Shown piece after piece: positions 3,988-45,160 of a DNA stretch of 58,994 nucleotides. The position numbers were made by a program, and so were the translations under genes. The notes under the pieces are model-generated. The model did not search any database and was not told where the DNA came from. It was given only the letters and a program-made list of their open reading frames with translations. Where the stretch lies: NCBI GenBank assembly GCA_964599285.1, contig CAZREI010000004.1:1-58994 (forward strand). Direction: 5' to 3'. The DNA comes from an uncultured Candidatus Saccharibacteria bacterium. Its GTDB lineage: Bacteria > Patescibacteriota > Minisyncoccia > Minisyncoccales > Staskawiczbacteraceae. Within the stretch, counting starts at the first letter, position 1, and the number at the start of each line of letters is the position of its first letter.

Positions 3988-4158
3988 TCGCTGAAATTAC
4001 GCTGATCAAAACGCTGATTTAACGCTGAAACGGCGGCGCCCGTGGGCGCCGCCGCCGAACACCATCATCACCCACCGTAATCGCTATCACCACCGTCATT
4101 GCGAGGCGCACCGAAGCAATCTTCATCCGTCGTCGTTGCGTGCCGTCGCGCGGCAATC
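3988..4158. repeat. Composite repeat: ACGCTGA tandem, GC hairpin and GTCATTGCG elements
   Basis: Near-identical composite at 51759-51894. Confidence 0.75.
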
Positions 4159-7101: not shown

Positions 7102-8103
7102 CTACTTTGAATCTTGGAACATAACCCTGATTAACCCCAACTTGTGATTTGGGTTATTCTTGTTATGCTCGCGGACCGAATCAGAAAAATTGTGGGCGTG
7201 TCCGTACACCATCAGGAATAGTCGGTCACTACTTGTTCTGGCTTGGGCAGATATAATTCTTATTGCCGCGTCCTCCCGATCTTTAAATATTGTTCTTTGA
7301 TCCAGGTCGACCGCATCTTCGGGTATTATGGTTTCTTTTGTTTCTGCTCCTTTTGGGATAATGTCTCCATCAATAAGCAGTTTAAATGGGAGACCGGGTC
7401 GTATGTAGACGTAGTTATCGCTTGCTATGGAAAACACGTTACTATTAGCCCACATGCGCGCTTCTTTGATGGTTGCTTCAGCTTGGGTAACTCTCTTTTT
7501 CTCTGGGTCAAGCATCGGAGGGTTCTCCCTAAAATACTTTTCCATTGATTGGATTTTTTTAGAGAGCAGGTATATAAAAATGGTCTCCCCGAACTTGTCT
7601 TTCCCTGGCACCTTAAGAGCATGCTCATCAAATAACTCTGCCGCTGCTTGGTATGAGAAAGCCGTGATCGCAAACTCATCCCATTCTTTCTTCTGGTTTT
7701 TAACCAACCTTATTAGCTCTTCTGTCCTTTCTTCTGTCAAACCTTCAAAGTAGACTATTCTATCGCAATATCCCGTGCTTTGGACCACAGGGATGATACA
7801 CTCAATCTTCTTCTGCGACCTTATAATGATGTCTGCGAAAAGGAAATTTCTGTGCTCTTTTTCTGATCTGTGGATTTGTGGTATGTGGACGATGTAAGGA
7901 CCGGATCCGTTGTCAACTTGGAGTGCAACATCAAATCCATGCTTGGAACCGAGCTCCTTCAATATACCAAGCAGTTCCTCTCTTGATTCTATCTCTTTGG
8001 CCTCTCTATCCAATCGACCAACACAGCAAAGCCAAAACCCGCTCCCAACAATAAGCAAGGTCAAAACAAGTAGTCTGTGCGAGAGTTTCTTTTTATTTAA
8101 CAC
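7102..8103 (-). CDS. Hypothetical membrane-anchored protein
   Basis: N-terminal basic stretch plus TM; AAGGAG SD before GTG; own promoter (TTGACA-17-TAAAGT, 8196-8224 minus) and terminator hairpin near 7061-7086. Confidence 0.7.
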   Translation of the reverse strand: MLNKKKLSHRLLVLTLLIVGSGFWLCCVGRLDREAKEIESREELLGILKELGSKHGFDVALQVDNGSGPYIVHIPQIHRSEKEHRNFLFADIIIRSQKKIECIIPVVQSTGYCDRIVYFEGLTEERTEELIRLVKNQKKEWDEFAITAFSYQAAAELFDEHALKVPGKDKFGETIFIYLLSKKIQSMEKYFRENPPMLDPEKKRVTQAEATIKEARMWANSNVFSIASDNYVYIRPGLPFKLLIDGDIIPKGAETKETIIPEDAVDLDQRTIFKDREDAAIRIISAQARTSSDRLFLMVYGHAHNFSDSVREHNKNNPNHKLGLIRVMFQDSK

Positions 8104-8265
8104 GTTAAGCTCCTTCTAGGCAGTTTTCGAAACAGCTCGTACACCATAGAACGACTATGGTAAGATACTGTTTATTTGTTAAGGTTCATGTCGTTACTTT
8201 ATATCATTTTAAAGTATATGTCAATAGTTGTTGGCTTTCTATAATTTTGATACAATCACTAAATT

Positions 8266-8691
8266 ATGAGTAAAAAGATATTAGTGTTTGGTACTTTTGA
8301 CGGACTGCACGACGGGCATAAGGATTTTTTTCGGCAGGCTCGTGAATTTGGTGACCATTTAGTGGTGGTGGTTGGGCGAGACTCAACTATCATAAAAACC
8401 AAGGGACGGCCGCCGAAGTTTAACGAACAGGAACGGCTGGCGGCCGTGGGCGCCGCAGAATATGTGGATGAAGCTCGCTTGGGCAACGAGGCTGTACTTG
8501 GTGAAAAGTTTAACCCCTACAAAGTTATTGAAGAAATAAAACCCGACGTTATTTGTTTAGGCTACGACCAGACTCATTTTACAGAAAAGCTGGCGGAAAA
8601 AATAAAAGAGATGGGGCTAAGCATTGAAATCAAAAGACTGAAAGCATATAGGCCTGAAATGTACCATTCTTCAATCATTAACAAGCAGTAG
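8266..8691 (+). CDS. Cytidylyltransferase-family protein (FAD synthase RibL-like)
   Basis: FGTFDGLHDGH (HxGH) motif and ICLGYDQ. Confidence 0.8.
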   Translation: MSKKILVFGTFDGLHDGHKDFFRQAREFGDHLVVVVGRDSTIIKTKGRPPKFNEQERLAAVGAAEYVDEARLGNEAVLGEKFNPYKVIEEIKPDVICLGYDQTHFTEKLAEKIKEMGLSIEIKRLKAYRPEMYHSSIINKQ

Positions 8692-8715
8692 GCTTATTCG
8701 TACGAATAGGAGAAT

Positions 8716-8982
8716 ATGAATAACAAAGATACCGTTAAATTTTTTAAAACACTAGGTAACGAAAGAAGGTTTTTAATTTTACGATATTTATTTGGTAATA
8801 AGGAGCTGACTGTTGGGCAAATCAGCGGTTTAATAAAACTTTCTTTTCGGAGCACATCAAAACATTTGGGCATATTAACGGGAATGGATTTGGTCACGAT
8901 ACGACAAGAAAGTTTACACAAATTCTATTCACTTAATTATGCAAAATTCCCAAAACAATTTATTACATTTTTCAAAAACTAA
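8716..8982 (+). CDS. ArsR/SmtB-family HTH transcriptional regulator
   Basis: FKTLGNERRFLIL...ELTVGQIS...STSKHL...FYSL pattern. Confidence 0.82.
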   Translation: MNNKDTVKFFKTLGNERRFLILRYLFGNKELTVGQISGLIKLSFRSTSKHLGILTGMDLVTIRQESLHKFYSLNYAKFPKQFITFFKN

Positions 8983-8996
8983 TTTTGAGAATTAAT

Positions 8997-9030
8997 ACTA
9001 TTCGCTTATTCGTACGAATAAGCGAATAGT
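8997..9030. promoter_or_regulatory. Perfect 34 bp palindrome, candidate operator; 17-mer core repeated at 8692-8708
   Basis: ACTATTCGCTTATTCGT|ACGAATAAGCGAATAGT. Confidence 0.5.
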
Positions 9031-9038
9031 TACTACCC

Positions 9039-10334
9039 ATGCTAGATATCAATAACATTCGCGATCACAAAGAAGAAACTAAAAAGTCCCTTTTGAAAAG
9101 ATTAAAAGAAGGCGATTTTAATTTGGATGAAATTATTGGTTTGGACGACCAGCGCAAACAGTTGCTCACCAAAGTTGAGCAACTTAAAGCCGAGCGCAAT
9201 AAAAATTCCAAAACCAAACCCACTCCAGAAATGATTGAAAAAATGAAAATGGTTGGAGAGGAAATAAAATCGTTAGATGAGCAAATAAAAAATGTAGAAA
9301 GCCAACTAAAAGAAACAGTATCAGCTCTGCCTAATCTTCTGTCCGAAGACGTGCCGGTGGGAAAAGATGAATCGGAAAATAAAGTTATCAGACAGTGGGG
9401 AAGTGTGCCAAAATTTAGCTTTGAAATAAAGGATCATGTGCGGCTTGGGCAGGATCTGGATTTAATCGACAATGAAACTGCTTCAAAGGTTTCCGGTGCG
9501 CGTTTTACCTATTTAAAAAATGAGTTGGCTCTGTTGCAATTTGCCTTAATCCAGCACGCATTTTTTGTTTTAACTAATCCCAAAATTATTAAAAAAATTG
9601 CCGATTCAGTAAAAAAGGGATTTAGCGCAAAGCCGTTTACGCTCGTTATTCCACCGGTTATGGTAAAACCCGACGTATTTTGGAAAATGGCGCGATTGGA
9701 ACCCAAAGAAGAACGATATTACATTCCATCAGACAGTGTGTATCTAGTGGGAAGTGCCGAGCATACGTTGGGGCCCATGCACATGGATCAAGTTATTTTA
9801 GAGCAGGATTTGCCGTTGCGTTACGTGGGATATTCGACCGCGTTTCGCCGAGAAGCCGGATCGTACGGAAAAGATACCAAGGGCATTTTACGTATGCACC
9901 AGTTTGATAAAATTGAAATGGAAAGTTTTTCAAAGCCGGAAGACTCTATTGGCGAACAGAATTTTTTTGTAGCTATCCAGGAATACCTATTGCAATCATT
10001 GAAAATTCCATACCAGGTGGTGATGATTTGCACCGGAGATATGGGCGGACCCGATGCCCGGCAAATTGATATTGAGTGCTGGATGCCCGGGCAAAATAAA
10101 TATCGGGAAACCCATACCGCAGATTTGATGACTGATTATCAAGCACGCCGGTTAAATACGAAACTCAAAAGAAAAAATGGTAAAAATGAATTTGTCCACA
10201 TGAACGATGCCACGGTTTTTGCTATTGGCAGGACCTTAATTGCTATTTTGGAAAATTACCAGCAAAAAGATGGGAGCGTGAAAGTGCCCAAGGTTTTGCA
10301 AAAATATACGGGGTTTAAGGTTATTCGTCGTTAG
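9039..10334 (+). CDS. serS: Serine--tRNA ligase
   Basis: MLDI N-terminal coiled coil, LPNL, AFRREAGSYGKDTKGILRMHQFDK, HMNDATVFAIGRTLIAILENYQ. Confidence 0.96.
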   Translation: MLDINNIRDHKEETKKSLLKRLKEGDFNLDEIIGLDDQRKQLLTKVEQLKAERNKNSKTKPTPEMIEKMKMVGEEIKSLDEQIKNVESQLKETVSALPNLLSEDVPVGKDESENKVIRQWGSVPKFSFEIKDHVRLGQDLDLIDNETASKVSGARFTYLKNELALLQFALIQHAFFVLTNPKIIKKIADSVKKGFSAKPFTLVIPPVMVKPDVFWKMARLEPKEERYYIPSDSVYLVGSAEHTLGPMHMDQVILEQDLPLRYVGYSTAFRREAGSYGKDTKGILRMHQFDKIEMESFSKPEDSIGEQNFFVAIQEYLLQSLKIPYQVVMICTGDMGGPDARQIDIECWMPGQNKYRETHTADLMTDYQARRLNTKLKRKNGKNEFVHMNDATVFAIGRTLIAILENYQQKDGSVKVPKVLQKYTGFKVIRR

Positions 10335-26625: not shown

Positions 26626-26697
26626 TGCGGGGTCGTCTAACGGTCGGACGTCGGTCTTTGGAACCGCACAATCTAGGTTCGAATCCTAGCCCCGCAG
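26626..26697 (+). tRNA. tRNA-Gln(TTG)
   Basis: Acceptor TGCGGGG/CCCCGCA, anticodon loop CT-TTG-GA, T arm CTAGG-TTCGAAT-CCTAG; CCA not encoded. Confidence 0.92.
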
Positions 26698-26918
26698 CAG
26701 CCCTATGCTAAGTCAAGTGACTAGGTCCCCTCGACTATTTTGGTGAAAAAGTTCGATAAAAAATTCCCTCACGGGAATGAGATTCGAACGTAAAACCATA
26801 GTAGTGAGGCGACCAAGAAGCATAGAGAACTATTCCTTAGTTGGCAAACCGGTTGAGTTACCGTATCCAGAACAAAAATTCGCCCAAAAGGCGAATTTTT
26901 GTTAGCATTATAAAACAT

Positions 26919-28295: not shown

Positions 28296-29609
28296 TCACT
28301 CTAGGATAATCTTTTTGTCTTTTAGCGCCAGTTTGCTTTTCAGGAAGAATAGTAGTTCGCGTTTTTCAACAAGGGTTCCTTCTCTGAGCAAGTACTTGGC
28401 ATAATTTCGTATATCTATTTCAGAATTATTAGCCTCCTTTTTATGGCCTAGCACCCCGATTCTGAATTTATTAAAGCGGGCGATTTCTTGCTCAATCCTA
28501 TTTCTTACACCCAGCTCATCCAGGTTAATTTTATCCATCAGGTCTATTAATTCTGTTATCAGGCTCGGCTCATTGATCATCGGATTTTTACAGTCGATAT
28601 TTCTGGCCTTAGTGCAGAAATAGTAGACGTGCCGATTCACTCCGCCATCCTTGAGCTTTTTGAATTTCTCATCAGCCGATATGCCCGAGCCACAGTAGCC
28701 ACACTTAATCAGCTTGGTGAAGGCAAATTCTTTAGATTCAGTTTTCGGCACAAAGTTCTCGCTCAGAGTAGTTTGGACTTTATCAAATAATACCTTATCT
28801 ATTATCGGTGTATGCTTACCGGTGTACCAGTTTCCGCTACCGACAGGAAATTCAAATTCTCCATAATAGAAACTGTTTCTTAAGATGAGGTAGACATTGC
28901 CCAGTACCAAAGGTTTACCGCTTTTGGTTTTAAACCCTATCTCATTGAGCCATCGGAAAAGTTTTCTACCCGACCACTGTTCATTGGCTACTTTTTCAAA
29001 CATCTGCTTAATTATGGGAGCCCGTTTGGGATCCAGCCTGCACTGGCATTTCTTGTCCACATGCTTTTCGTTAAGGTAGCCAGTAGGGGCCACTCCGGGG
29101 CGATAACCCATTTCGCAGCGTGTCTTGAGTCCGCGTTTTACGTTGACTGCCTTATTATCATTTTCCAGCTTGGCTTGGCTACCCAGAATCATAAGCAGGA
29201 ACTTTTCATTTGGATTATTGGTAAACCGTTGCCCGTAAGTCCTTATTTCAATCAAGAGTTTCTGGTCCATTAAATCCACCACGGATCCCAGGTCGCCAGC
29301 ATTGCGGCTCAATCGGTCCGGCGCCCATGTTAGAATGGCATTGTATTTTCCTTCCCTAATTTCATTGATCATTTCATTGAATACCGCCCGCTGGCCAACT
29401 TCCTTGGAGGAGTGAGATTCTCGTTTAATATCAATGATTTTTAGATTCTCTTTTTCGGCCAATACCATCATTTCTTTAATTTGTGAGTCAATGGATAAGA
29501 CCTGCTTGTCTTCGGCCTCGGTGGATTTCCTGGCATAAAGGCAGTATTTGAGGGTAGGCGCCATTACGGGAGGGGACGAGGTTCTACTCACTTGTGTTGC
29601 TTGTGTCAT
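28296..29609 (-). CDS. Large serine recombinase (resolvase, recombinase and zinc-ribbon domains)
   Basis: YCLYARKS catalytic Ser, TWAPDRLSRN, PTGY and IKCGYCGS...YYFC. Confidence 0.92.
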   Translation of the reverse strand: MTQATQVSRTSSPPVMAPTLKYCLYARKSTEAEDKQVLSIDSQIKEMMVLAEKENLKIIDIKRESHSSKEVGQRAVFNEMINEIREGKYNAILTWAPDRLSRNAGDLGSVVDLMDQKLLIEIRTYGQRFTNNPNEKFLLMILGSQAKLENDNKAVNVKRGLKTRCEMGYRPGVAPTGYLNEKHVDKKCQCRLDPKRAPIIKQMFEKVANEQWSGRKLFRWLNEIGFKTKSGKPLVLGNVYLILRNSFYYGEFEFPVGSGNWYTGKHTPIIDKVLFDKVQTTLSENFVPKTESKEFAFTKLIKCGYCGSGISADEKFKKLKDGGVNRHVYYFCTKARNIDCKNPMINEPSLITELIDLMDKINLDELGVRNRIEQEIARFNKFRIGVLGHKKEANNSEIDIRNYAKYLLREGTLVEKRELLFFLKSKLALKDKKIILE

Positions 29610-29783
29610 CTCTTTAATATTAGTTAGTTTGTATTACGCGACATTCTTAGTTCGACCTTTACAGGTACAGGAATGACGCAATGGCGACAAGGAGTCCAGG
29701 CCTCATCAGTTGGTAACCATTAGCATTGAAAATTATCAAATATTTACTTTTTAGAGAAAAAGTGCTAAATTTAAAGAAAATAT

Positions 29784-32807: not shown

Positions 32808-33592
32808 TGAAAACTTTTCAATTTGACCACGAACCAACCTTTGCTGAATTATGGGATGCTTGCGTCTACAACCTTCTCTACCAAGCCCAGGATTATAAGA
32901 AAGATATCGTAGAATTATTTAGTAAGATCGGCATAGACAAAAAGTCAAAAATAATTGATGTTTCGGCGGGCGGCGGGTTTCCTGCCCTTGAACTAATCAA
33001 GGATGGATATGACATTGTTTGCTCTGATGGTTTTGATGACGAAGTAGAACTCTTTAACAGGAAGGCAAAACAAGAAAAGGTTAGTTCACGTTGTATAAAA
33101 GTATTATGGAAGGAGCTGCCAGAACATTTTTCCAGTAATTCTTTTGATTTTCTTTTTTGTCGAGGTAACTCGTTTATTTACGCAGACGGCGGATGGAATA
33201 CGCCCATAAAAGTTGATACGATAGAAGTAATGAATAATTACCAAAACACGTTGAACATATTTTATGACCTGCTTCAACCAGGCGGTTGGATATATGTTGA
33301 TAAATTTAAGGATAACGAAACCACTCATCAGGAAAAAGTTGGCGAAGTAAAAGTGAACAATGAAAATTCAGAAGATTTAATTTTTTGGACGCAGCGATTT
33401 CCAGAAAAGAAAATGCGACAAGCGTCGATGATAAGGAAAGAAAATGACCATGAAAAGAAAATCCCCAATATTTCCTATGATTTATCTTCTGTTGAGTTGG
33501 AAGGTTTATTGGGGAAAGCTGGCCTTAGGAATATTCAAAAAATAGATTTACCTAGCGAGAAAACTTTTGATATTTGGATTGCTCAGAAATAA
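32807..33592 (+). CDS. Class I SAM methyltransferase, paralog of the upstream C-terminal domain
   Basis: IDVSAGGG and CRGNSFIYADGGWN; aligns by eye with the C-terminus of the 1007 aa protein. Confidence 0.85.
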   Translation: MKTFQFDHEPTFAELWDACVYNLLYQAQDYKKDIVELFSKIGIDKKSKIIDVSAGGGFPALELIKDGYDIVCSDGFDDEVELFNRKAKQEKVSSRCIKVLWKELPEHFSSNSFDFLFCRGNSFIYADGGWNTPIKVDTIEVMNNYQNTLNIFYDLLQPGGWIYVDKFKDNETTHQEKVGEVKVNNENSEDLIFWTQRFPEKKMRQASMIRKENDHEKKIPNISYDLSSVELEGLLGKAGLRNIQKIDLPSEKTFDIWIAQK

Positions 33593-33612
33593 CTACCAGC
33601 CGAAATTATAGT

Positions 33613-35595
33613 ATGAAAAATATATTTACCAAAACTAAAATAGCAACAAAATTCGGAGATTTTGATATCCGAGTTTATGCGGATGTACAAGGCAAAGAAA
33701 CAGTCGTGCTTTCGACTGAAAAGTTAGATACATCTGTTCCCGTGCTCGTCAGAATACACAGTGAGTGTATGACCGGCGATACCTTTGGTAGTTTACAGTG
33801 CGATTGTGGCGAACAACTTGATAAGTCTTTAGAGAAAATCACTGAAAGTAAAAATGGCGTTCTTGTTTATCTACGCCAGGAAGGTCGCGGAATTGGATTG
33901 TTTGAAAAAATAAAAAGTTACCAACTTCAAGATAAGGGGTATGATACCTTTGAAGCAAACCTTTTGCTAGGACACCGTCCTGACGAACGAACCTATGAAA
34001 AGGCAAAAATAGCTCTTAGCGATCTAGGAGCAAGCCGTATCCGTTTGTTGACCAACAATCCATCAAAAGTGTCTGAAATGGCAAAACTTGGCATTGAAGT
34101 GGTAGAACGTGTCCCCTTAATAATAAAGTCAAACAAATATAATCAAGATTACTTTGTATCAAAGCGTGATAAATTCAAACATTTTTTTAGCACAGAGGTT
34201 AGTTATTATTTTTATCAATTTCACGCTGTAACTCCGGAACAAGTTGAACAGATCGGCGAATTCTTAAAAGACAAAAAGCGTGACCCTCTTCTAAAAATTT
34301 GTGTTGGTGTTGCCGCGGATCATTCTGTAATAGACAGTACAGAAAAAATTATTCAAATAGAGAGTATTTTTCGCGCTTGCGATCTTTATGAGGGCTTTGT
34401 TCCAATATTACATTTTTCTTTTAGGAACTCGCCCGACCCATTAAAAGATATTCGGATTATAAAGAAGAATTTACCGTTCGTTAAGTACATCCAAACAAAT
34501 GATATTCCATCACCAGAATTGGAGACAATAAAACTTGCATGCCGGTCTTTTCTCGCTGATATCCCACTATCAGATAAAAACTTTGATTTAGTCAACGATG
34601 TCAGTTTTAGACGAGCAATTACAAAGTATAAAGCATTCATACTTTTAGATAATAGCAAAGGCACAGGAATACGTGAGGCAAAAGAATCTTTAATGAAAAA
34701 AATAGATGTTTTGCTCAAGTATGGCTTGAACGATATTGCAATTTTTGGTGGATTTGGACCAGATGATCTCGATACATATTTTGAACTTCGTCGTTATTAC
34801 AAAATCAATTTTTCAATTGACGCTGAGACAAAACTCAAAACTAACGGCCAAATCGACATCGAAAAAACGAAACTGTATCTATCGCAACTCATTAGGTTTA
34901 GTGATCCCAAAGAAGCAGGCATCGAACAGACGAGAACATTCTTGCAACAAAGCAAACATACTAATTGGGATAAGGCTACAATCGAAGGCAAAGAATTTTC
35001 AATACACCCTGCGGTGTTTCATCCAGGTTCTTTTCCTTCGACCATATGGTATGCTGTTGCTGTCCGCGAACAAGTAAAAGGACAAGGAGATTTTTGTGAA
35101 GTAGGATGTGGTGCAGGAGTGGTAAGTTGCTTGGTCGCCATTGATAATCCCAACATTCAAGTTGTCGCAACCGACATAAATCCTTTTGCCAGCGAGAATA
35201 CGAAACTCAATGCTGATAAACTTGGTGTTGGCGATAGAGTTGAGGTTACCACCGGAGATGTTCTCGACGGCATACCAAGTGATCGTAAATTTGACTCAAT
35301 ATTCTGGTCATTGCCTTTTGGATTTCTTGATCCTGGAGCACCCGTAACATTAGAAGAAATGCAGGTATTTGACCCTGGATATAAAGCAACGCGAAAGTTT
35401 TTGAACGATGCTAAAAAGTTTTTAAAACCAAACGGGCAATTGCTCATTGGATTTTCTTCAGATTTAGGACACGAGGAACTGCTTGAGGAATTAGCAAAAG
35501 AAGCCGGTATTAAAATAGAAAAAGTTAAAGAGCATGAAATGCAAGAGAAAGACACCCTAAAATTTGAACTTCTTCGTGGGGTTTATTTGAGGTAA
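33613..35595 (+). CDS. Fusion: GTP cyclohydrolase II, TrpF-like barrel and HemK-like methyltransferase
   Basis: VRIHSECMTGDTFGSLQCDCGEQL, RQEGRGIGL, DERTY and LLTNNP; middle LLDNSKGTG/FGGFGP/IDAETKL; C-terminal EVGCGAG, ATDINP and FWSLPFG. Confidence 0.85.
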   Translation: MKNIFTKTKIATKFGDFDIRVYADVQGKETVVLSTEKLDTSVPVLVRIHSECMTGDTFGSLQCDCGEQLDKSLEKITESKNGVLVYLRQEGRGIGLFEKIKSYQLQDKGYDTFEANLLLGHRPDERTYEKAKIALSDLGASRIRLLTNNPSKVSEMAKLGIEVVERVPLIIKSNKYNQDYFVSKRDKFKHFFSTEVSYYFYQFHAVTPEQVEQIGEFLKDKKRDPLLKICVGVAADHSVIDSTEKIIQIESIFRACDLYEGFVPILHFSFRNSPDPLKDIRIIKKNLPFVKYIQTNDIPSPELETIKLACRSFLADIPLSDKNFDLVNDVSFRRAITKYKAFILLDNSKGTGIREAKESLMKKIDVLLKYGLNDIAIFGGFGPDDLDTYFELRRYYKINFSIDAETKLKTNGQIDIEKTKLYLSQLIRFSDPKEAGIEQTRTFLQQSKHTNWDKATIEGKEFSIHPAVFHPGSFPSTIWYAVAVREQVKGQGDFCEVGCGAGVVSCLVAIDNPNIQVVATDINPFASENTKLNADKLGVGDRVEVTTGDVLDGIPSDRKFDSIFWSLPFGFLDPGAPVTLEEMQVFDPGYKATRKFLNDAKKFLKPNGQLLIGFSSDLGHEELLEELAKEAGIKIEKVKEHEMQEKDTLKFELLRGVYLR

Positions 35596-35712
35596 AGTTC
35601 AAATCTGAAAAAAGCAGGAATAAGGGGGGATAAGCTATAGAGGCCTCATATTAGGGGCTTTTTGAGTATTTTTAAGCCTAAATGTTGACTAAATCAAAAG
35701 GACGTGTTGCTA

Positions 35713-35741
35713 TTGACAAGAAAACTGATATTTGATATGAT
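35713..35741 (+). promoter_or_regulatory. Strong sigma70 promoter heading the small-ORF array
   Basis: TTGACA-17 nt-TATGAT. Confidence 0.75.
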
Positions 35742-35928
35742 ATAGGCATAGGGTTTCGCCCTATAAAACTGCACTTTTATAGCGAGTATTAAGTTGCTTG
35801 GCCATAGCTATAAGACACTGACTATTCAGTATTTTATAGCTATGGCTACCACTTCGGAAGCCAAGCTAACTCATCCTCTACCTAGAAGGTAGAGGACCAA
35901 GCCGACTATCAGTCGGAAGGAGCTTATC

Positions 35929-36291
35929 ATGGCGAAGTACGGGCACCTGTCTCATAACTACATCGAAGCCATCTTGAACAAGATGGGTGGCGAGGATGCC
36001 GCTCAGAAGTTTCTCAATGGCGAGTTGGAGATTCTCCCGAAGAAACAGCCGAAAAAGCGCATGTCTCACCGCGAACCCGTCGCAGACAAGGATCGTCTGG
36101 CATACGTCTTTCAGGTCATCGAGGAGATTATGGAGTCGGAATGTTCCGGAACGGCAGAAAAGCTTGGAGCTATCAAACGTGCTCTTGATACGTTTGATCA
36201 GAAGAATCTTACATTCATTCTGTCCCGCATCTATGACGGGATGGCTCCGAGTGGATTCAACTGGAATCCGGACAATGGGTACGCTCCCTAA
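35929..36291 (+). CDS. Small phage-like hypothetical protein (array ORF1)
   Basis: AAGGAG SD; 120 aa. Confidence 0.7.
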   Translation: MAKYGHLSHNYIEAILNKMGGEDAAQKFLNGELEILPKKQPKKRMSHREPVADKDRLAYVFQVIEEIMESECSGTAEKLGAIKRALDTFDQKNLTFILSRIYDGMAPSGFNWNPDNGYAP

Positions 36292-36301
36292 TACTCCAAA
36301 A

Positions 36302-36416
36302 CCGCAGTTCATAACCACACATCTGCGTAATAAAAGTGTGGATTACATAAGGCCGAACGGATTCGTCCCTCGGCCTCACTTCAGAGGAATTTTCAAAAGA
36401 AGATTTTTCTGAAGTG
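36302..36416 (+). repeat. Structured intergenic element, copy A (three hairpins)
   Basis: CGCAG/CTGCG, AGGCCGA/TCGGCCT and CACTTCAGA/TCTGAAGTG stems. Confidence 0.9.
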
Positions 36417-36490
36417 AACGATTGTACATTCAACCCCGATTTTCGGGCGGCAACCTCGGAGGCCGTAATTCCGAAACAAGGAGATTCGCA

Positions 36491-36724
36491 ATGACTCAAA
36501 TGACTAGTTTGGAATTCAATGCAGTAATAAGTGCGTGGGGCGTGAATGATGAGCGCAAGCTCAAGGCTATTGGACTTTTAATGAACCGTATAAAACCACA
36601 TGAAGTCCTTCGGCTTGTTGATAAAATGGGGCTTGCCGAAAACGCAGTGCGAAAAGCTCAGATTGAGCTGGAGCGAACCAACAAAGCTTTCGATGATTTC
36701 TGTAATGAGAATGCCCGTGGGTAA
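36491..36724 (+). CDS. Small hypothetical protein (array ORF2)
   Basis: AAGGAG SD before ATG at 36491. Confidence 0.65.
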   Translation: MTQMTSLEFNAVISAWGVNDERKLKAIGLLMNRIKPHEVLRLVDKMGLAENAVRKAQIELERTNKAFDDFCNENARG

Positions 36725-36771
36725 AGAAAAAAGGTTAAGGGAGAATACCTGCGTTAAAACTTCTCTCGCTA

Positions 36772-36831
36772 AGGCAAACTCCGGTTTGCCTCACTTCAGA
36801 GGAATTTATCAAGATAGATTTTTCTGAAGTG
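36772..36831 (+). repeat. Structured intergenic element, copy B (two hairpins)
   Basis: AGGCAAAC/GTTTGCCT and CACTTCAGA/TCTGAAGTG. Confidence 0.85.
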
Positions 36832-36869
36832 TTGATGGAAGTTTTCACCGTTCTTTAAAGGAGAAGGTC

Positions 36870-37112
36870 ATGAAGTGCCGAGTAAATCCTTATCCTTCGG
36901 GTGAAGGTTGGCTCCAGCTGGAGCAGTTTGAGATCATTCTGGTCCCCCAAAATAAAAGGGATCAGCGTGTTCTCTCTGCTATGAAGACCGCCAAGGCTTT
37001 TCTCACCCATGACTCGGGAGACGATGGCACCGTCAAGAGTGCCAGAGTTCTAGTGCATGGAAAGCACTATGAACGCGTCATGGCCCGGACAAGAGCCAAG
37101 CGCGGTTACTAA
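36870..37112 (+). CDS. Small hypothetical protein (array ORF3)
   Basis: AAAGGAG SD. Confidence 0.65.
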   Translation: MKCRVNPYPSGEGWLQLEQFEIILVPQNKRDQRVLSAMKTAKAFLTHDSGDDGTVKSARVLVHGKHYERVMARTRAKRGY

Positions 37113-37137
37113 AAAAGAGTGTCAACTCTCTAACTGA

Positions 37138-37249
37138 CCGCAGTTCACAAACCACACTGCGAAAACAAAAGTGGATTACATAAGGCCGAATGGATTAAAA
37201 ATTCGGCCTCACTTCAGAGGAATTTACCAGTGTAGATTTTTCTGAAGTG
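37138..37249 (+). repeat. Structured intergenic element, copy C
   Basis: Full three-hairpin copy. Confidence 0.9.
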
Positions 37250-37289
37250 GATGATTGACTGAACGAAATCTTAACTAGAGGAGACAGTG

Positions 37290-37541
37290 ATGAAGAAGCT
37301 CTTTCTTTGCGCGACCAGTGACCCGCTCGACCGTCGTTTCGGTGGCATGAAGCACATGGCGTGCTGGGCGGAAACTGCGGAGGAGGCCTGCGAGGAATTC
37401 CGTCGTGTGCGCCGTCCAAGGATGAAGTGGCAAGCGTACGCTGTGGAGATTACGGATGAGCTGAAGCAACAGTACCCTTGGATAAAGGGTATCCCCGTTA
37501 GTGTTCCGGGAAGGAAATTCGGGGACGTGCGGATAACCTAG
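37290..37541 (+). CDS. Small hypothetical protein (array ORF4)
   Basis: AGAGGAG SD. Confidence 0.65.
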   Translation: MKKLFLCATSDPLDRRFGGMKHMACWAETAEEACEEFRRVRRPRMKWQAYAVEITDELKQQYPWIKGIPVSVPGRKFGDVRIT

Positions 37542-37788
37542 CGCACGGAAAACCCGCCACGGATGGCGGACTAGGATAATGGGGAGACTCAATCAGTTTC
37601 CCCTCCATATATGAGTTTTGAAAAAGTTTCAAGACTGATACATGGATTAGCTCTTTATTAAAAAATCACAGTCATAGCTATAAGTTTTTATTTTAAAAGA
37701 TGAAAGTTTATAGCTGTGACTGAAGGCATTTCGCCAACGGGCAGTCGGTTTCTTGGATATCACAACAACCAAGCAGAGGAGATTTACT

Positions 37789-38007
37789 ATGGCAACCGTA
37801 AACATCCCCAAAGCAACAGTCACTCTTACGGACCCGCAGATTGGTATCTTGCTCCAGATGATCAAATACTGGAGGGAAACAGAAGTGGCGTTTGAGGCAG
37901 TGGAGGAGAAGCCATGGCTCAAACCCAAAAACCCAATCAATTTAAATCCTACTGATTTGGCAGAGGTCGAGAAGATCTTGATGAAGGCCATGTGGGATTG
38001 TGGTTGA
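37789..38007 (+). CDS. Small hypothetical protein (array ORF5)
   Basis: AGAGGAG SD before ATG at 37789. Confidence 0.6.
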   Translation: MATVNIPKATVTLTDPQIGILLQMIKYWRETEVAFEAVEEKPWLKPKNPINLNPTDLAEVEKILMKAMWDCG

Positions 38008-38098
38008 TGTGGGGCCGTCAGGTACCTAGCAAGCACCGCACGGTGCACCTGGCGAAAGTGAGGCAATTCGTGATGACGACGAAACCTCACAGCAATCA

Positions 38099-38161
38099 AG
38101 GACGATTCGCAAGATTCGTCCCCACTTCAGAGCAGTTTTCAATGAAGACTTTTCTGAAATG
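38099..38161 (+). repeat. Structured intergenic element, copy D (diverged)
   Basis: GGACGA/TCGTCC and CACTTCAGA/TCTGAAATG. Confidence 0.75.
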
Positions 38162-38239
38162 TTGACGGAAATTACAAGCTCTTTTCTTCCCATATCGGGC
38201 GGCCTCAATGGTGGCCGAAATCTCTTGAAAGGAGATACC

Positions 38240-38845
38240 ATGAACAATCTGTTGATTCACCAGGGTTTCACCGTTCTGTCGAGTCTCTACACCCTCACCA
38301 TTTTCTTCCCTTTGAAAGCGAAGAAGGATAAGGGGTTGGATGATTTGGAAGCGTACCAACACTTCCCAATCACCGCGGGGAACGACGACGAGGCGATTCT
38401 CCGGGCCCAAGAAGCTACCACGGGTATAGATTTTGAGAGTAGCTATGGCTACCTCATTCATCGTACCGAGGACGCGATTCGGATTGTGTCCGTGAAGATT
38501 AAGATTCTCGGACTAGGTTACTGCCGTCACGGACATTATCCTGGTTCCTTCGTGGAGTCCTACTTCGTGAAGAACGAGGAGGAAGCCAGGGCACACTTCA
38601 AGGATGCTATTCGGGGTTGCGAACGCAATCACGGAATCTGTATTGACGCGAGTTTTCGCAACAATACTGCAGATTGTTACTTTCCTGGGCTTTGGCCAGG
38701 CGAGCCAATTCTGCAGAGCAGTCTTCCCTGCACAACTCCTGCTATTCAGCGCGGTAGTGCGGTACCTCCCCCAATTCTGCTTTCGGAGGAAAAGGGAATC
38801 CTTGTTAAGGAAACCCTTGAACTCTGGGACAAGCTCGCCAAGTAA
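38240..38845 (+). CDS. Hypothetical protein (array ORF6)
   Basis: AAAGGAG SD; contains YCRHGH and GCERNHG. Confidence 0.7.
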   Translation: MNNLLIHQGFTVLSSLYTLTIFFPLKAKKDKGLDDLEAYQHFPITAGNDDEAILRAQEATTGIDFESSYGYLIHRTEDAIRIVSVKIKILGLGYCRHGHYPGSFVESYFVKNEEEARAHFKDAIRGCERNHGICIDASFRNNTADCYFPGLWPGEPILQSSLPCTTPAIQRGSAVPPPILLSEEKGILVKETLELWDKLAK

Positions 38846-38851
38846 CCGCGC

Positions 38852-38968
38852 CCGCAGTTCACAAACCACACTGCGCAAATAAAAGTGGATAACATATATC
38901 AAGGCCGAACGGATTCGTCCCTCGGCCTCACTTCAGAGTAGTTTACCAGTGTAGACTTTTCTGAAGTG
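38852..38968 (+). repeat. Structured intergenic element, copy E
   Basis: Full three-hairpin copy with a compensatory AGTTT/AGACT change. Confidence 0.9.
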
Positions 38969-39001
38969 GCGAATGTATCTTTACAAAAGGAGGAGAAAAC
39001 C

Positions 39002-39250
39002 ATGCTTATTCTCATTGAAGTTCAGAAGACGCGGGGAAGCGAATTCGAAGTGGTCGGCATTGTTGATGCCGCAGACACCAAAGTCGCCACCGAAGAAGCT
39101 GATCGTCAGTATGCCGGTTCAACCTACTGTCGGTCGGCAAGGTATCTTACCGATAAGGTCGTCGCCGAGCTTGCTGAGAAGGGTTTCAAAGTCTGCGCTG
39201 GCGGCCCTGACTGCCAGCATGGAAGCGACAAACCCCACCTCGTTCGGTAG
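39002..39250 (+). CDS. Small hypothetical protein (array ORF7)
   Basis: AAGGAGG SD. Confidence 0.65.
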   Translation: MLILIEVQKTRGSEFEVVGIVDAADTKVATEEADRQYAGSTYCRSARYLTDKVVAELAEKGFKVCAGGPDCQHGSDKPHLVR

Positions 39251-39312
39251 GGTTCGGCAAAAGGTTGTGGGTCATCCTTAAACCCTCTCCGATTTTCTGA
39301 AAGGAGGCAATA

Positions 39313-39537
39313 GTGAACGAAATCGGGCAGATTTTCTCGATGCTGGTGGTCTTGGTTATCATGGGTCTCGGTTTGACACTCATGGTAGGTGGGCCAAAAC
39401 TGGCGGAGAGATATTGCGTCTGGCTACGCAACGCAACATTCAGCTTGATTCTGTGGACAATCAAGCTGCCCTTCCGACTAATCGGAAAACTGATATTTGG
39501 AGGCAAGAAAAAGAAGAAAAAGAAGAAACGTCCATGA
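39313..39537 (+). CDS. Small membrane protein with poly-Lys tail (array ORF8)
   Basis: AAGGAGG SD, GTG start, hydrophobic N-terminal segment, KKKKKKKK tail; AGCTCCG/CGGAGCT terminator-like hairpin follows. Confidence 0.6.
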   Translation: MNEIGQIFSMLVVLVIMGLGLTLMVGGPKLAERYCVWLRNATFSLILWTIKLPFRLIGKLIFGGKKKKKKKKRP

Positions 39538-39645
39538 AACGCAGAAAGCTCCGCGGGAAACCTCGGAGCTGTTTTAATACATAGTTTTTAGAAAACAGGC
39601 TCGTCTGTTAGGTTATTTTTTGGTATAATTCACTAACCTAAAATT

Positions 39646-41235
39646 ATGCCAGAAAGAGAACCATCGTTTGAGCCAAATACCTACCAGCCAAGTGTGCCAG
39701 AAACACATGAGGCTGCACCCGAAATAGAAAACAAACTCAACAACCCTCAATTTTTAGAGGGGCAATTTAGGCTTCCCAAAGAACAATGGGATGAACAATT
39801 TCGTGTATTGGTTCAACAAAAGTCCGAAGAAAATCAGCGAATGATTCAAGAAGCCGAAGAATCTCTGGGCAAGGAATTTGAAGAAAGCCCACAAGAAACA
39901 TCTTCAAGGTCTCCCGAAGTAATTCGTCAGGAAACATTTGAGAGGTATGTCAGAGGGTTAGGATTAAGCGGAGAAGACTTAAGAGGAAAGAGCATTTTAG
40001 ATTTAGGCTGCCATGAAGGTGAATTCGTAGAACAGCTTATCAAAGAGAATATCACATCAGAAGCATACGGTCTTGAAGCCAATGAGGAAGTGGCAATCAA
40101 GGAAGACCTCAAAGACCATGTTTTACGAGGGAACTTCGCAAAGAAGTTACCAAAAGAAAATCTTGATTATGTGGTATCCGTAGGCGCAGTATCAAACTAT
40201 ATATCAGAGGGGAAAGAAGGAGCCGAGGCTATAGAAGACACCATAAAAAATTCCCTAGATTCTCTGAAAGAAAGTGGAGAAGTAAGAATATATCCGATAC
40301 AGGAGGCACAGGAAAACTCTGAACTGGTGGGACTTATAGAATCCAGAAAGAGCTGGGGCAGCCTTGCTGAAAAGATTTCCAAGGAAGAGGGTGTAACATG
40401 CAGTATTGAACCGAGAGCTGTAAAAGTAATCGGCAAGAATAATGATGTCATTCTTGAATCAGTTTTGGTTATTAGAAAGCTACCTGAAAAAGAAAGGCAA
40501 TGGCAATCCTTTGAAAAACAATTTAAGGAAACTACTGATGCTTTGGGTTACGAGATTGAACCAAAAATTATGGATACGGTAGTCGGATTAAATGCGATTG
40601 GCATTAGTACCTACCAGTCTTGCGAAGGACACGTTGATCGTGGACGCATTGCTCCATGGGTAGATGTTTCTGCTCCCAACGAACCGAAAAAGAAATTCGA
40701 AAAATCAACAATATCCGATAAAGAAATTTACGAAAAAAATGATGTTTCGGAAGAGCTACTTACAAAATCAAAAAAGTTAGAAGGTAAGTTTAAGCGTGAA
40801 ATGAAGAAAAGAGAGATTGAGATGGATGACATGAAAGAACGAAAGAAGCTTGCCAAAGAGCTGATGGCCGAGCTTGAAATTTCCAAGGAAGAAGCGAAGA
40901 AATTGAGCAAGGCAGCAAAACAAATAGACAGATCAAAACATACCCCTACCCCAGAATATAAAAAATGGATGGAGGCAAACGAAGAACTAGTAAAGAAAGC
41001 AGAGGCCCTAGTTGCCGAATTTAACCAAGGCAGGGATAGGCCGGAAGGCTCAAGAATAAAAACGCAACCGAGGGGCTACGGTGCAGCTATTTATAATGGA
41101 GGAGAGGATTACGAAACTGCGAATACGGAGAGAACAGAACAAGAAAAAGAAGAACTAAAGTCTCGTTTAGAATCTTACCGGGCAGAATTCAAGGAGTTTG
41201 CGGAGTTTTTAAAAAAGAAGTTTTTTGAATCGTAA
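39646..41235 (+). CDS. Hypothetical protein with a SAM methyltransferase-like domain and a SCEGH-motif C-terminal domain
   Basis: KSILDLGCHEG and TYQSCEGH. Confidence 0.65.
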   Translation: MPEREPSFEPNTYQPSVPETHEAAPEIENKLNNPQFLEGQFRLPKEQWDEQFRVLVQQKSEENQRMIQEAEESLGKEFEESPQETSSRSPEVIRQETFERYVRGLGLSGEDLRGKSILDLGCHEGEFVEQLIKENITSEAYGLEANEEVAIKEDLKDHVLRGNFAKKLPKENLDYVVSVGAVSNYISEGKEGAEAIEDTIKNSLDSLKESGEVRIYPIQEAQENSELVGLIESRKSWGSLAEKISKEEGVTCSIEPRAVKVIGKNNDVILESVLVIRKLPEKERQWQSFEKQFKETTDALGYEIEPKIMDTVVGLNAIGISTYQSCEGHVDRGRIAPWVDVSAPNEPKKKFEKSTISDKEIYEKNDVSEELLTKSKKLEGKFKREMKKREIEMDDMKERKKLAKELMAELEISKEEAKKLSKAAKQIDRSKHTPTPEYKKWMEANEELVKKAEALVAEFNQGRDRPEGSRIKTQPRGYGAAIYNGGEDYETANTERTEQEKEELKSRLESYRAEFKEFAEFLKKKFFES

Positions 41236-41245
41236 ACTAAAAACT

Positions 41246-41917
41246 ATGCCAGAAAAGTTTTCAAGTAGTGAAGGTGGTGATTTTCTCAAAGAAAAATACC
41301 CCGACCTTCCTAAATCACCAGAAGTTGAGAGTGCAGTAAAACGCCAAGAGATACGAGAAGACGAAAAAGTAGGCAATGATCCCAAAGAAAAAATTGGGGC
41401 CTATTTAGACCGCCTCAATGAAATTTTTAATCCAGAAGATGTCGATAAAAAAGAGAGGAGAGTTGATATCTTAAAAGATAAACTCCACGAAAAGTTTGTC
41501 ATAAAAGAAATCCCAGAAAGTTATTTTAAGCAACAGCAGAGAATGGCACGAGAGCAAGGACACGGCGACATTGAAATTACAGATCAATTACGACAAGAAG
41601 CACTAAAAACAATTTCTGCTGACCAAGCACAAAGTCTTGATAATTGGATAGATTATTTGGGTTCAGAAGATGCCACCTATCCAGATTGGCTAAAATATTG
41701 GGCATTTAGAAGTATTACTCAACTTTCCCAATATGACAAAGAGGCTCATGAATTTAAGAGGCGAAGCAAAAGCACTACCGCTCCTTTCCCCGATATAAAT
41801 CGTGAGGCTTTGGCGTATGTATTGGACGCTGTAGAAAAACAGCAAAAAGAAAAGGCATTATTTAATTCAAGTAGTGATTTTGAGAGTTTTTTGGCAAACT
41901 ATAAAAATGAAAAATAA
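41246..41917 (+). CDS. Hypothetical protein, possibly C-terminally truncated
   Basis: Acidic ORF that ends overlapping the NUDIX start. Confidence 0.6.
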   Translation: MPEKFSSSEGGDFLKEKYPDLPKSPEVESAVKRQEIREDEKVGNDPKEKIGAYLDRLNEIFNPEDVDKKERRVDILKDKLHEKFVIKEIPESYFKQQQRMAREQGHGDIEITDQLRQEALKTISADQAQSLDNWIDYLGSEDATYPDWLKYWAFRSITQLSQYDKEAHEFKRRSKSTTAPFPDINREALAYVLDAVEKQQKEKALFNSSSDFESFLANYKNEK

Positions 41918-42317
41918 CATAGAACAAAAACCAGATTTCGCTATCCGAGTAATGGTTTTCAAAGACGGGAAAATTTTACTTGGAAAAAACAAAGGTAAGC
42001 ACGGCACGGGGAGTTATACCTTTGTCGGTGGTCATTTGGAGTATATGGAGTCCATTGAAGATTGTATCAAAAGGGAGTTATTGGAGGAGTGCGGTGTTGA
42101 AGTAGAAAATATAAAACTTCAATCAGTTTTAAGTGTTACAGATTACCCGCCATTTCACAGTATTCATATTACCTATACTGCCGATTGGAAAAGCGGAGAA
42201 CCGAAAGTATTAGAACCAGAAAAAATAGAAAGTTGGGATTGGTATAATTTGGATACTTTACCACAGCCGCTTTTTAAGAATGTGGAGCTGTCTTTAAAAG
42301 ACTATAAAAAATTATAA
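41907..42317 (+). CDS. NUDIX hydrolase
   Basis: GGHLEYMESIEDCIKRELLEECG Nudix box. Confidence 0.9.
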   Translation: MKNNIEQKPDFAIRVMVFKDGKILLGKNKGKHGTGSYTFVGGHLEYMESIEDCIKRELLEECGVEVENIKLQSVLSVTDYPPFHSIHITYTADWKSGEPKVLEPEKIESWDWYNLDTLPQPLFKNVELSLKDYKKL

Positions 42318-44726: not shown

Positions 44727-45160
44727 ATTCAAGCGGAGGTTAGATAGCCATTAAACAAGTTCTAATATCACGCACGAAGCCCAGCATTTGAAAATTTAGG
44801 ATCTTTACGGTCCTAAATTTTAAAATCTGGGAGCTGTGATTCGAACCTCAAAAGGGGTCGGGAAAAAGGATTTTTCCCGTGGCGGAATTATTCAAACCGA
44901 GGGGTTTGAAGGAGGCCGAAGGCTGACTGGTTCAAGCGGAGCGGAATCCTAGTCCCGCAGCCAAGTTTATTGTGCGACAAAGTTTTTAAAATGCAAACAA
45001 GGTAGAGATATGTCTATACCCAAAGTGAAAATCGCAAGTTACCTCAGTCTACGGATCGAGGCTTTTTATTGTGCGACAGTTTACGGCTGCTGGCAGTTTT
45101 GTGATTTTCATCAATTATTTAGGATTTTTTGGGTACTATGGTATTAAACAATTAAAAAAT

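Follow-up and report, generated by a model that had tools for sequence, protein, structure and literature searches.

What do the structured spacers do that separate eight small genes in an uncultured bacterium of the candidate phyla radiation (CPR)? The genes, numbered o1 to o8 here, lie at positions 35713-39580 of a contig of 58,994 nucleotides (CAZREI010000004.1 of assembly GCA_964599285.1, contig C4; its full length is called the window), and one composite element, built of an optional upstream module, a hairpin H2 and a conserved hairpin H3, recurs in the gaps between them. On balance, we regard these elements as probable cis-acting RNA punctuation, that is, as processing, stabilising or insulating sites, with H3 serving in addition as a homology patch for gene shuffling. 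As far as the sequences tell, an RNA role is favoured by the pseudoknots, the fixed wobble pairs, the bias towards the sense strand and the co-orientation with translation signals. Related loci are referred to by L numbers, and other contigs of the same genome by C numbers.

The composite element and its conserved fold

A repeat search recovered the five copies named in a preliminary description of this DNA, all on the + strand (copies A to E, Table 1), and a covariance model of H3 matched exactly these five sites in the 59-kb window, with the next best match at 12 bits. The sites scored 56-66 bits on the + strand versus 31-42 bits on the - strand. Every copy folds beyond its dinucleotide shuffles (z -5.0 to -6.9 on the + strand, with 0/200 shuffles as good). 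The description had missed a sixth, decayed copy in the o4-o5 gap, where an H3-shaped hairpin of divergent sequence follows H2; in L026, the o4 homologue is followed by a counterpart in which H2 is the same and H3 (4028-4063, 49.7 bits) is intact. Two copies had been called core-only. This does not apply to copy B, which has its own 5' H-type pseudoknot X at 36732-36767 (S1 AGGT 36732-36735 with ACCT 36747-36750; S2 GGGAGAA 36739-36745 with TTCTCTC 36761-36767), and copy D has an upstream hairpin. In copy A, the H1 stem is CGCAG/CTGCG, and its loop CCACAC (36315-36320) can pair with GTGTGG (36337-36342). The compensatory changes reported for the window were found again: for H2, copies A, C and E share AGGCCGA/TCGGCCT, copy B has AGGCAAAC/GTTTGCCT and copy D GGACGA/TCGTCC, and an inner H3 pair is A-U in A to C and G-C in D and E.

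The H3 statistics and the covariance model were based on 49 distinct sequences, which came from ~52 distinct copies after deduplication. H3 has a stem of 18 bp, interrupted by no bulges and containing one N.U position, and a loop of 3-7 nt. Pairing holds in 95.2% of cells and six pairs have changed on both sides; 0/500 shuffles reached the observed values, and slid registers were 43-53% paired. At pair 13-31, A-U (33 copies) alternates with G-C (15), at pair 17-27 A-U (30) with U-A (18) and at pair 18-26 C-G (31) with U-A (12). Wobbles occupy fixed positions, as pair 10-34 is G.U in all 49 copies and pair 15-29 is U.G in 46 of the 49, while at mid-stem pair 11-33 most copies have an N.U mismatch. 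Pair 1 shows changes from C-G to U-G, and the altered 5' arm of H3 in L031, CGU, is still paired via wobbles. Since such wobbles become A.C mismatches on the opposite strand, they favour RNA, and the covariance model placed the sense strand 20-25 bits above the antisense strand at every site. Selection on a single-stranded fold, as had been proposed, is thus borne out by the pairing, the double changes and the fixed wobbles, and the sense (+) strand is supported as the folding strand.

The conservation of H3 is also one of sequence. Its basal ten pairs are almost invariant and its outer 9-bp arms nearly so; in the 49 distinct copies the hairpin is bounded by CACTTCA ... TGAAGTG, and the bases that follow vary (AACG, TTGA, GATG, GCGA and others). 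In L048 (2195-2275) the apical loop holds an extra 30-nt hairpin and the basal arms are retained. In 47 of 51 copies, H2, GC-rich and free in sequence (41 different sequences), is a hairpin of at least 6 bp (mean 9.4) that stops 0-2 nt short of H3; among random 40-mers, 26% give such a hairpin.

Upstream of H2 stand two alternative modules, X and H1. Module X, with the consensus AAGGUUAAGGGAGAAUACCUnnGUUAAAAyUUCUCyC, is an H-type pseudoknot that shows compensatory changes in both interleaved stems among 12 copies (S1 paired in 47/48 cells, S2 in 82/84), and in six copies its second stem replaces H2 and stacks on H3. Module H1 consists of CGCAG..CCACA..CUGCG, an A-rich linker and GUGG, with pairing between loop and linker; a joint 2-nt insertion has lengthened this pairing from CCAC/GTGG to CCACAC/GTGTGG in two copies. 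The evidence for the H1 pseudoknot is nevertheless thin, because the H1 stem never varies. H1 was also considered as a copy of the 3' end of tRNA-Gln (an att core), but CGCAG alone is in common. A frameshift or read-through signal in the pseudoknot was rejected as well, as the slippery-looking A AAA AAG lies beyond the o2 stop and the read-through frame ends after 10 codons. H3 is followed by a single-stranded motif of loose conservation, nnGAUGGAAAUU, behind which a U-rich stretch, a reusable leader hairpin and a Shine-Dalgarno (SD) sequence often stand. Alternative pairing of this motif with the H3 3' arm was dismissed, since the sequences are not complementary.

The spread of the element was assessed by scanning one degenerate H3 pattern, which finds near-consensus copies only, against three collections. 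It returned 6 loci in GTDB representative genomes and 33 loci in JGI/ENA metagenome contigs; in IMG/VR viral contigs, two H3 patterns gave none. The covariance model confirmed these copies and added two divergent ones in L026. Altogether the family comprises ~60 copies with two pseudoknot modules and an invariant G.U pair, from Staskawiczbacteria-like CPR genomes and metagenomes, every copy being intergenic and co-directional with flanking open reading frames (ORFs) led by SD sequences. The genome that contains the window, 859 kb in size, has eight copies in three arrays (contigs C4, C15 and C5), again all co-directional with genes. Two of the three copies beyond the window lie on C15, in an array running off the contig end, and one on C5. 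The C15 array stops at the contig edge inside an o6-like leader, which suggests an assembly break at repeated modules. The earlier statement that the element belongs to no named family agrees with an Rfam release 15 cmscan of 33000-42000 on both strands (E<=1), which gave nothing on any copy. The sole match, a microRNA model at 27 bits versus a gathering score of 100, was sub-threshold and fell on the long leader hairpin at 37651-37741. In full-text literature searches, neither the motif nor any account of such arrays in Patescibacteria came up.

Orphan genes and the exchange of gene-plus-element units

Judged by their constraint, the cargo genes are real, because the ratio of nonsynonymous to synonymous substitution rates (dN/dS) is 0.14 for o8, which shares 93% amino-acid identity with the homologue that closes the syntenic array of L041, and 0.24 for o6 against its L047 homologue (dS 0.45). 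Homologues are few: among 5.8 billion proteins, o1 has zero and o6 only two, and the o7 family has ~10 small members among 1.84 billion representative proteins, with two paralogues within the syntenic array of L041. The o4 cassette is 82-84% identical in nucleotides to L026 3661-4027, which sits in a different array. Of the eight ORFs only o8 has an in-genome paralogue, 44% identical, on contig C6; its protein contains two hydrophobic segments and, at the C-terminus, eight lysines in a row. ORFs from different arrays are mutually unrelated, and Pfam, PHROG, PADLOC and PDB sequence searches for a cargo function gave nothing significant. The genes had been called phage-like. This found no support, either in matches to PHROG, Pfam or PADLOC or in phage, plasmid and IMG/VR collections, and whole-island blastn against phage and plasmid records returned nothing. 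Three matches of a 17-mer from the promoter in IMG/VR were set aside as chance, being without the module.

It had been suggested to test whether homologous arrays hold different ORFs, and they were seen to do so at the orthologous site upstream of a 529-aa gene. Where the window holds o1-o8, L041 has five ORFs, of which only the o7-like genes and o8 are shared, and L026 has at least six, sharing only o4; in L052/L053, L054 and L055 the array is absent. In L052, ~350-nt inverted repeats (1200-1560, 3170-3520) surround a two-gene low-GC segment, which lies between a resolvase fragment and the 529-aa-gene homologue, where other genomes have the array.

The gene o6 was found in three contexts, in the window, L047 and L048, and the same H1-H2-H3 element stands behind it each time; between genomes, this element is 87-91% identical versus 82-85% for the ORF itself. 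Upstream, o6 is preceded by a D-type H3 and the o6 leader in the window, by B-type X/H2/H3 and the o6 leader in L047, and by a promoter and an o2-type leader in L048; downstream, the three contexts diverge straight after CUGAAGUG. As o6 retains its 3' element while the upstream part differs, the unit of inheritance is the ORF with its 3' element. The boundaries of exchange were read from two informative high-identity comparisons. L042 and L043 are 100% identical downstream of and through the H3 3' arm, with a different loop and unrelated sequence upstream. L014 and L041 are 94-100% identical upstream and have a rare U at position 1 in common, differ from position 8 onward and are unrelated after H3. 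Because these exchanges fall in different arms (3' in the former pair, 5' in the latter), no single fixed crossover of the attC type is indicated; such breakpoints are what homologous recombination or template switching at a conserved patch would predict, and not what an enzyme with one crossover would.

Tandem cassette duplicates running from H3 to H3 were seen in L039 and L021 and agree with this view. These loci (L021 6126-9594) also hold a foreign array with two tandem target genes of a diversity-generating retroelement (DGR), the first of them followed by H2-H3. The variable repeats in L021 (6639-6775, 7543-7679) match a template repeat at 8045-8181 beside a reverse transcriptase gene at 8536-9594. 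The genome of the window has four reverse transcriptase genes of the DGR type (C5, C10, C11, C22), none linked to the window array. DGR involvement, including the idea that the element is a DGR target-site hairpin, was rejected for the window array, which is matched by no template or variable repeat.

Array layout and genomic setting

The promoter scan confirmed a single promoter at the head of the array, at 35713-35741, with 11/12 consensus positions and a TG extension. It is the sole strong sigma-70-like site on the + strand of the island, and the scan for promoters and terminators found none within the spacers. The eight ORFs, each preceded by an AGGAG-type SD sequence, were likewise as described. 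The promoter is part of a ~110-nt promoter-leader module (P-module) that is conserved at 11 or more independent loci and heads arrays, among them those of contig C15, L009, L041/L014, L037, L042, L043, L044 and L031. At the other end, the terminator-like hairpin scores under the T-run threshold of the scan.

Leaders are reused as well. The o2-type leader precedes different ORFs in L047, L048, L041 and L020, and a related one stands before o6 (38190-38236) and before an ORF on contig C8. The leaders of o1 and o5 begin with long hairpins of another family (CAUAGCUAUAAG..UUAUAGCUAUG; 35801-35846, 37660-37722). The o1 hairpin, LH1, is an inverted repeat of 21 nt with 90% complementarity; relatives with compensated stems (CAGCAAUAAG..UUAUUGCUG) follow H3 in L021, L032, L034 and L039, and one stands before an ORF in L026.

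Table 1. Features of the array, its surroundings and similar arrays; positions refer to the window unless a contig or locus is named.
Feature	Position	Strand	Description
P-module	35670-35768	+	promoter scan and recurrence at array heads; upstream TTGACTAAATC box, -35 TTGACA 35713-35718, TG-extended -10 TATGAT 35736-35741
P-module 5' hairpin	35748-35764	+	ATAGGG..CCCTAT
o1 structured 5' leader	35800-35916	+	LH1 long hairpin 35801-35846; short hairpins 35875-35895, 35902-35916
o1	35929-36291	+	120 aa, orphan; SD GGAAGGAG
Copy A	36302-36416	+	H1 36303-36327, H2 36350-36376, H3 36377-36416; z -6.9; 66 bits
Leader module before o2	36437-36486	+	TTTCGGGCGGC..GCCGTAATTCCGAAACAAGGAG; reused before unrelated ORFs
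o2	36491-36724	+	77 aa, orphan; ORF with SD
Copy B	36732-36831	+	pseudoknot X, H2 36772-36791, H3 36792-36831; z -6.1; 64.5 bits
o3	36870-37112	+	80 aa, orphan; ORF with SD
Copy C	37138-37249	+	H1 with CCAC/GTGG loop-linker pairing, H2 37183-37209, H3 37210-37249; z -6.9; 64.9 bits
o4	37290-37541	+	83 aa; homologous cassette in L026
Sixth, decayed copy	37581-37645	+	H2 GGGGAGACU..GUUUCCCC 37581-37603, H3-shaped hairpin 37605-37645; z -5.0
o5	37789-38007	+	72 aa, orphan; ORF with SD
Copy D	38058-38161	+	upstream hairpin GTGAGG/CCTCAC 38058-38090, H2 38100-38121, H3 38123-38161; z -5.0; 56.5 bits
o6	38240-38845	+	201 aa; two known homologues, both followed by the same element
Copy E	38852-38968	+	H1, H2 38902-38928, H3 38929-38968; z -5.5; 64 bits; travels with o6
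o7	39002-39250	+	82 aa; family of small Cys-containing proteins
o8	39313-39537	+	74 aa; small membrane protein with poly-Lys tail, last array gene
Terminator-like hairpin, array end	39551-39578	+	GCTCCG..CGGAGC, then TGTTTT; read from sequence, conserved in L041
Large serine recombinase gene	28296-29609	-	in the island, ~6 kb upstream of the array
~70-nt sequence upstream of recombinase genes	29645-29715; C1 36500-36570; L041 1985-2035
High-GC mini-array	C8 13230-14100		same build (promoter, leader hairpin, orphan ORFs, terminator)
High-GC mini-array	C5 14900-16900	-	same build
High-GC mini-array	C15 1-1230	-	same build

The genome comprises 24 contigs and is 97.6% complete, and the nearest public relatives of the locus are metagenome-assembled genomes (MAGs) of Candidatus Staskawiczbacteria. 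The label 'Saccharibacteria' is doubtful for the MAGs that bear it, because a flanking host gene of theirs is 72-76% identical in nucleotides to Staskawiczbacteria loci; transfer between the two classes is therefore not claimed. Base composition sets the array apart, with 45-52% G+C across 35.7-39.6 kb versus 35-41% in the flanks. G+C at third codon positions is 0.42-0.66 in the eight array ORFs, 0.27-0.35 in neighbouring genes and 0.41-0.50 in the housekeeping genes of the window. The array sits in an 18.3-kb island between tRNA-Gln (26626-26698) and a repeat at 44943-44962, where the tRNA 3' end CGAATCCTAGCCCCGCAGCA recurs as GGAATCCTAGTCCCGCAGCC (18/20 matching). Besides the array, the island contains a large serine recombinase gene, a SufS/methyltransferase/RibA cluster and the 529-aa gene. 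A second recombinase copy, 76% identical, lies at C1 35223-36473, and just upstream of each such gene stands a conserved non-coding sequence of ~70 nt (GACCTTT..AGGAATGACGCAA..GGAGTCCAG..GTTGGTAAC). TTATTGTGCGACA(G/A), a word found repeatedly just before promoters or after terminators (window 44970-44982 and 45067-45080; C5, C8), may be part of a further repeat family in a genome rich in repeats. The C8 mini-array forms a fourth island of the same build, without H3. CPR/Patescibacteria have genomes below 1 Mb, yet the present one holds at least four compositionally distinct orphan-gene arrays, whose spacers have an elaborate conserved RNA architecture.

Probable RNA punctuation weighed against other roles

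In the reading that we favour, the island would form one transcription unit, running from a strong promoter and a 5' hairpin through eight orphan genes to a terminator. Each gene would be followed by a 3' unit of an optional H-type pseudoknot (H1 or X), a GC-rich H2 and an abutting, conserved H3, and these modules would act within the mRNA as punctuation. H3 may be the recognition or processing site of a host double-strand-RNA factor, with ribonuclease III (RNase III) as the simplest candidate; the genome encodes RNase III (NERLEFLGDA signature, contig C14), RNase J and polynucleotide phosphorylase. H2 and the pseudoknot would stay on the upstream cistron as its protective 3' end, the downstream one would begin with the post-H3 motif and leader hairpins, and neighbouring genes would thereby be uncoupled in stability and translation. 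We surmise that H3 would double as a homology patch for exchange, duplication and loss of gene-plus-element units, because it is the only sequence common to otherwise unrelated genes. Processing of this kind would account for the adjacency, GC-richness and free sequence of H2, the conservation of H3 and its variable or growing apex.

Two known systems invite comparison. RNase III processing sites (R0.3-R1.3) lie between the early genes of phage T7, and mRNAs of Neisseria contain Correia hairpins, also called Neisseria miniature insertion sequences (NEMIS), that are cleaved by RNase III; in both, cleavage leaves a hairpin protecting the upstream mRNA. By its behaviour, the present element appears closest to the sites between T7 early genes. 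What it has in common with T7 and NEMIS is the recurrence of related sense-strand hairpins, each weak or mismatched at mid-stem, between the genes of one polycistronic transcript. Unlike them, the element is a composite of a pseudoknot, a hairpin of free sequence and a conserved hairpin, its basal stem is conserved in sequence across genomes, and cleavage is a step that we only infer. Also unlike T7, the element occurs in a CPR bacterium, between chromosomal orphan genes and not phage genes.

Several points weigh against RNA punctuation. All its steps beyond RNA folding, namely transcription of the spacers, cleavage at H3 and the effects on stability and translation, are ones that we infer. 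RNase III normally needs no conserved sequence, and the conservation of the basal 10 bp of H3 suggests a more specific partner. In L012, L015, L032 and L037, H2-H3 stands after the last ORF, just before the terminator, where a processing or stabilising hairpin looks redundant and a cassette-borne site natural. Moreover, four independent arrays have a large serine recombinase gene nearby, and the hairpin parts of the element would fold in single-stranded DNA too.

The basal-stem conservation, the pre-terminator H2-H3 and the recurrent nearby recombinase hint at a more specific partner or at an added role in DNA, and it is for them that we retain, as the main though unlikely alternative, a cassette system at the DNA level, in which H2-H3 would be a single-strand hairpin recombination site analogous to integron attC and a recombinase, possibly the nearby large serine recombinase, would insert, excise and reorder ORF-plus-element units behind a fixed promoter. 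The array does resemble integron arrays and clusters of attC sites lacking integron integrases (CALINs), with one promoter, co-directional unrelated small genes, a structure-conserved imperfect hairpin after each and variable content; the ORF is inherited with its 3' element like an ORF-attC cassette, arrays at orthologous sites differ in gene content or are missing in some relatives, the element is present between the last ORF and the terminator, and the cargo is diverse (orphan genes, a cupin, a von Willebrand factor A protein, a haem-oxygenase-like protein). In L041, a large serine recombinase gene immediately precedes the array promoter and is divergent from it, and a serine recombinase lies within 1-6 kb in the window, L010/L022 and L024/L040. 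However, covarying pseudoknot modules would be pointless in a DNA hairpin site, the invariant G.U positions and the sense-strand bias fit RNA, and exchanges in different H3 arms leave no single crossover point. Unlike attC, H3 is without R/L boxes (RYYYAAC/GTTRRRY), extrahelical bases and an unpaired central spacer, its better-folding strand is the sense (top) strand, and the hairpin is conserved in sequence, has sense-strand G.U pairs and is joined to pseudoknots. For an integron integrase (IntI), Pfam found no Phage_integrase in the flanking genes, the sole recombinase of the neighbourhood being the large serine recombinase. No recombinase lies beside the arrays of L047 (between uvrA and groEL), L048, L009, L012, L015 and the genome's own C5, C15 and C8, an absence that is often uninformative as many metagenome contigs are short, and the recombinase paralogue on C1 has no adjoining array. 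A chance match of 12 nt is all that the recombinase gene has in common with the array, which also disposed of the idea that the element junction is a leftover 3' end of that gene. Doubtful to us, too, is a dedicated gene-cassette platform of Staskawiczbacteria-like CPR bacteria, parallel to integrons, in which an open-ended array would start with the conserved promoter-leader, H3 would be the place where units of one ORF and its 3' element are captured, exchanged and duplicated, and the element would double as mRNA punctuation; its agent would be an unrecognised enzyme, perhaps the large serine recombinase that adjoins several arrays, or an RNA-templated route. In gene shuffling, the element seems to behave most like the promoter-early stem-loop (PeSL) cassettes (PMC2839356) of T4-type phages, which flank small orphan genes in hyperplastic regions, and recombination between PeSL motifs shuffles, deletes and replaces genes (PMC2839356, PMC4122927). 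A PeSL is, however, a sigma-70 promoter with a terminator stem-loop, whereas the present spacers have no promoter-like site and no U-tract after H3, and the present elements are not matched in phage records or IMG/VR and carry pseudoknots and covarying stems.

We consider it highly improbable that H2-H3 is a selfish mobile hairpin, tolerated or co-opted like co-transcribed Correia elements or enterobacterial repetitive intergenic consensus (ERIC) elements, even though the element is short, repeated, near-palindromic and intergenic and the genome is rich in other hairpin repeat families. It shares with repetitive extragenic palindromes (REPs) and bacterial interspersed mosaic elements (BIMEs), which stabilise upstream mRNA in enterobacteria, a place within operons downstream of stop codons and a mosaic, modular build. 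REPs, in contrast, are dispersed by the hundreds per genome with REP-associated tyrosine transposases (RAYTs); here, eight copies stand in three arrays of one kind, all co-directional with genes. H2 is different in nearly every copy and H3 is constant, unlike the copying of one element, no terminal inverted repeats or target-site duplications were seen in the alignments, and the whole spacer, from pseudoknot through H2, H3 and post-H3 motif to leader, is modular and position-specific. A MITE (miniature inverted-repeat transposable element) was rejected on the grounds of the uniform orientation, the differing H2 and the lack of flanking duplications in the alignments. Hardly credible is a signal in double-stranded DNA or in transcription, with the arms CACTTCAGA..TCTGAAGTG as a palindromic operator of a dimeric regulator or as an antitermination (put-like) or attenuator RNA. 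The near-invariance of the outer arms would suit it, and structured spacers would presumably hinder Rho loading in untranslated gaps. Yet compensatory changes in the inner stem and apex and loops of variable length make no sense for an operator, and H3, without a U-tract after it, is not an intrinsic terminator. Besides, the known put (HK022) and nut (lambda) sites work once in each operon and not after each gene, which counts against a put-like reading.

The preliminary description had offered three functions, namely RNA processing or stabilising sites, a cis-regulatory RNA and a recombination site. The data do not choose among them, while the pseudoknots and the invariant G.U pair favour RNA. 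Should the elements prove to be processing or insulating sites, they would amount to natural modular 'parts' that let unrelated genes plug into one operon and still be expressed, and would open a way into the RNA metabolism of an uncultured phylum. As recombination sites, they would represent a second, non-integron route to gene-cassette arrays, which would bear on how ultra-small symbionts acquire and turn over their accessory genes.

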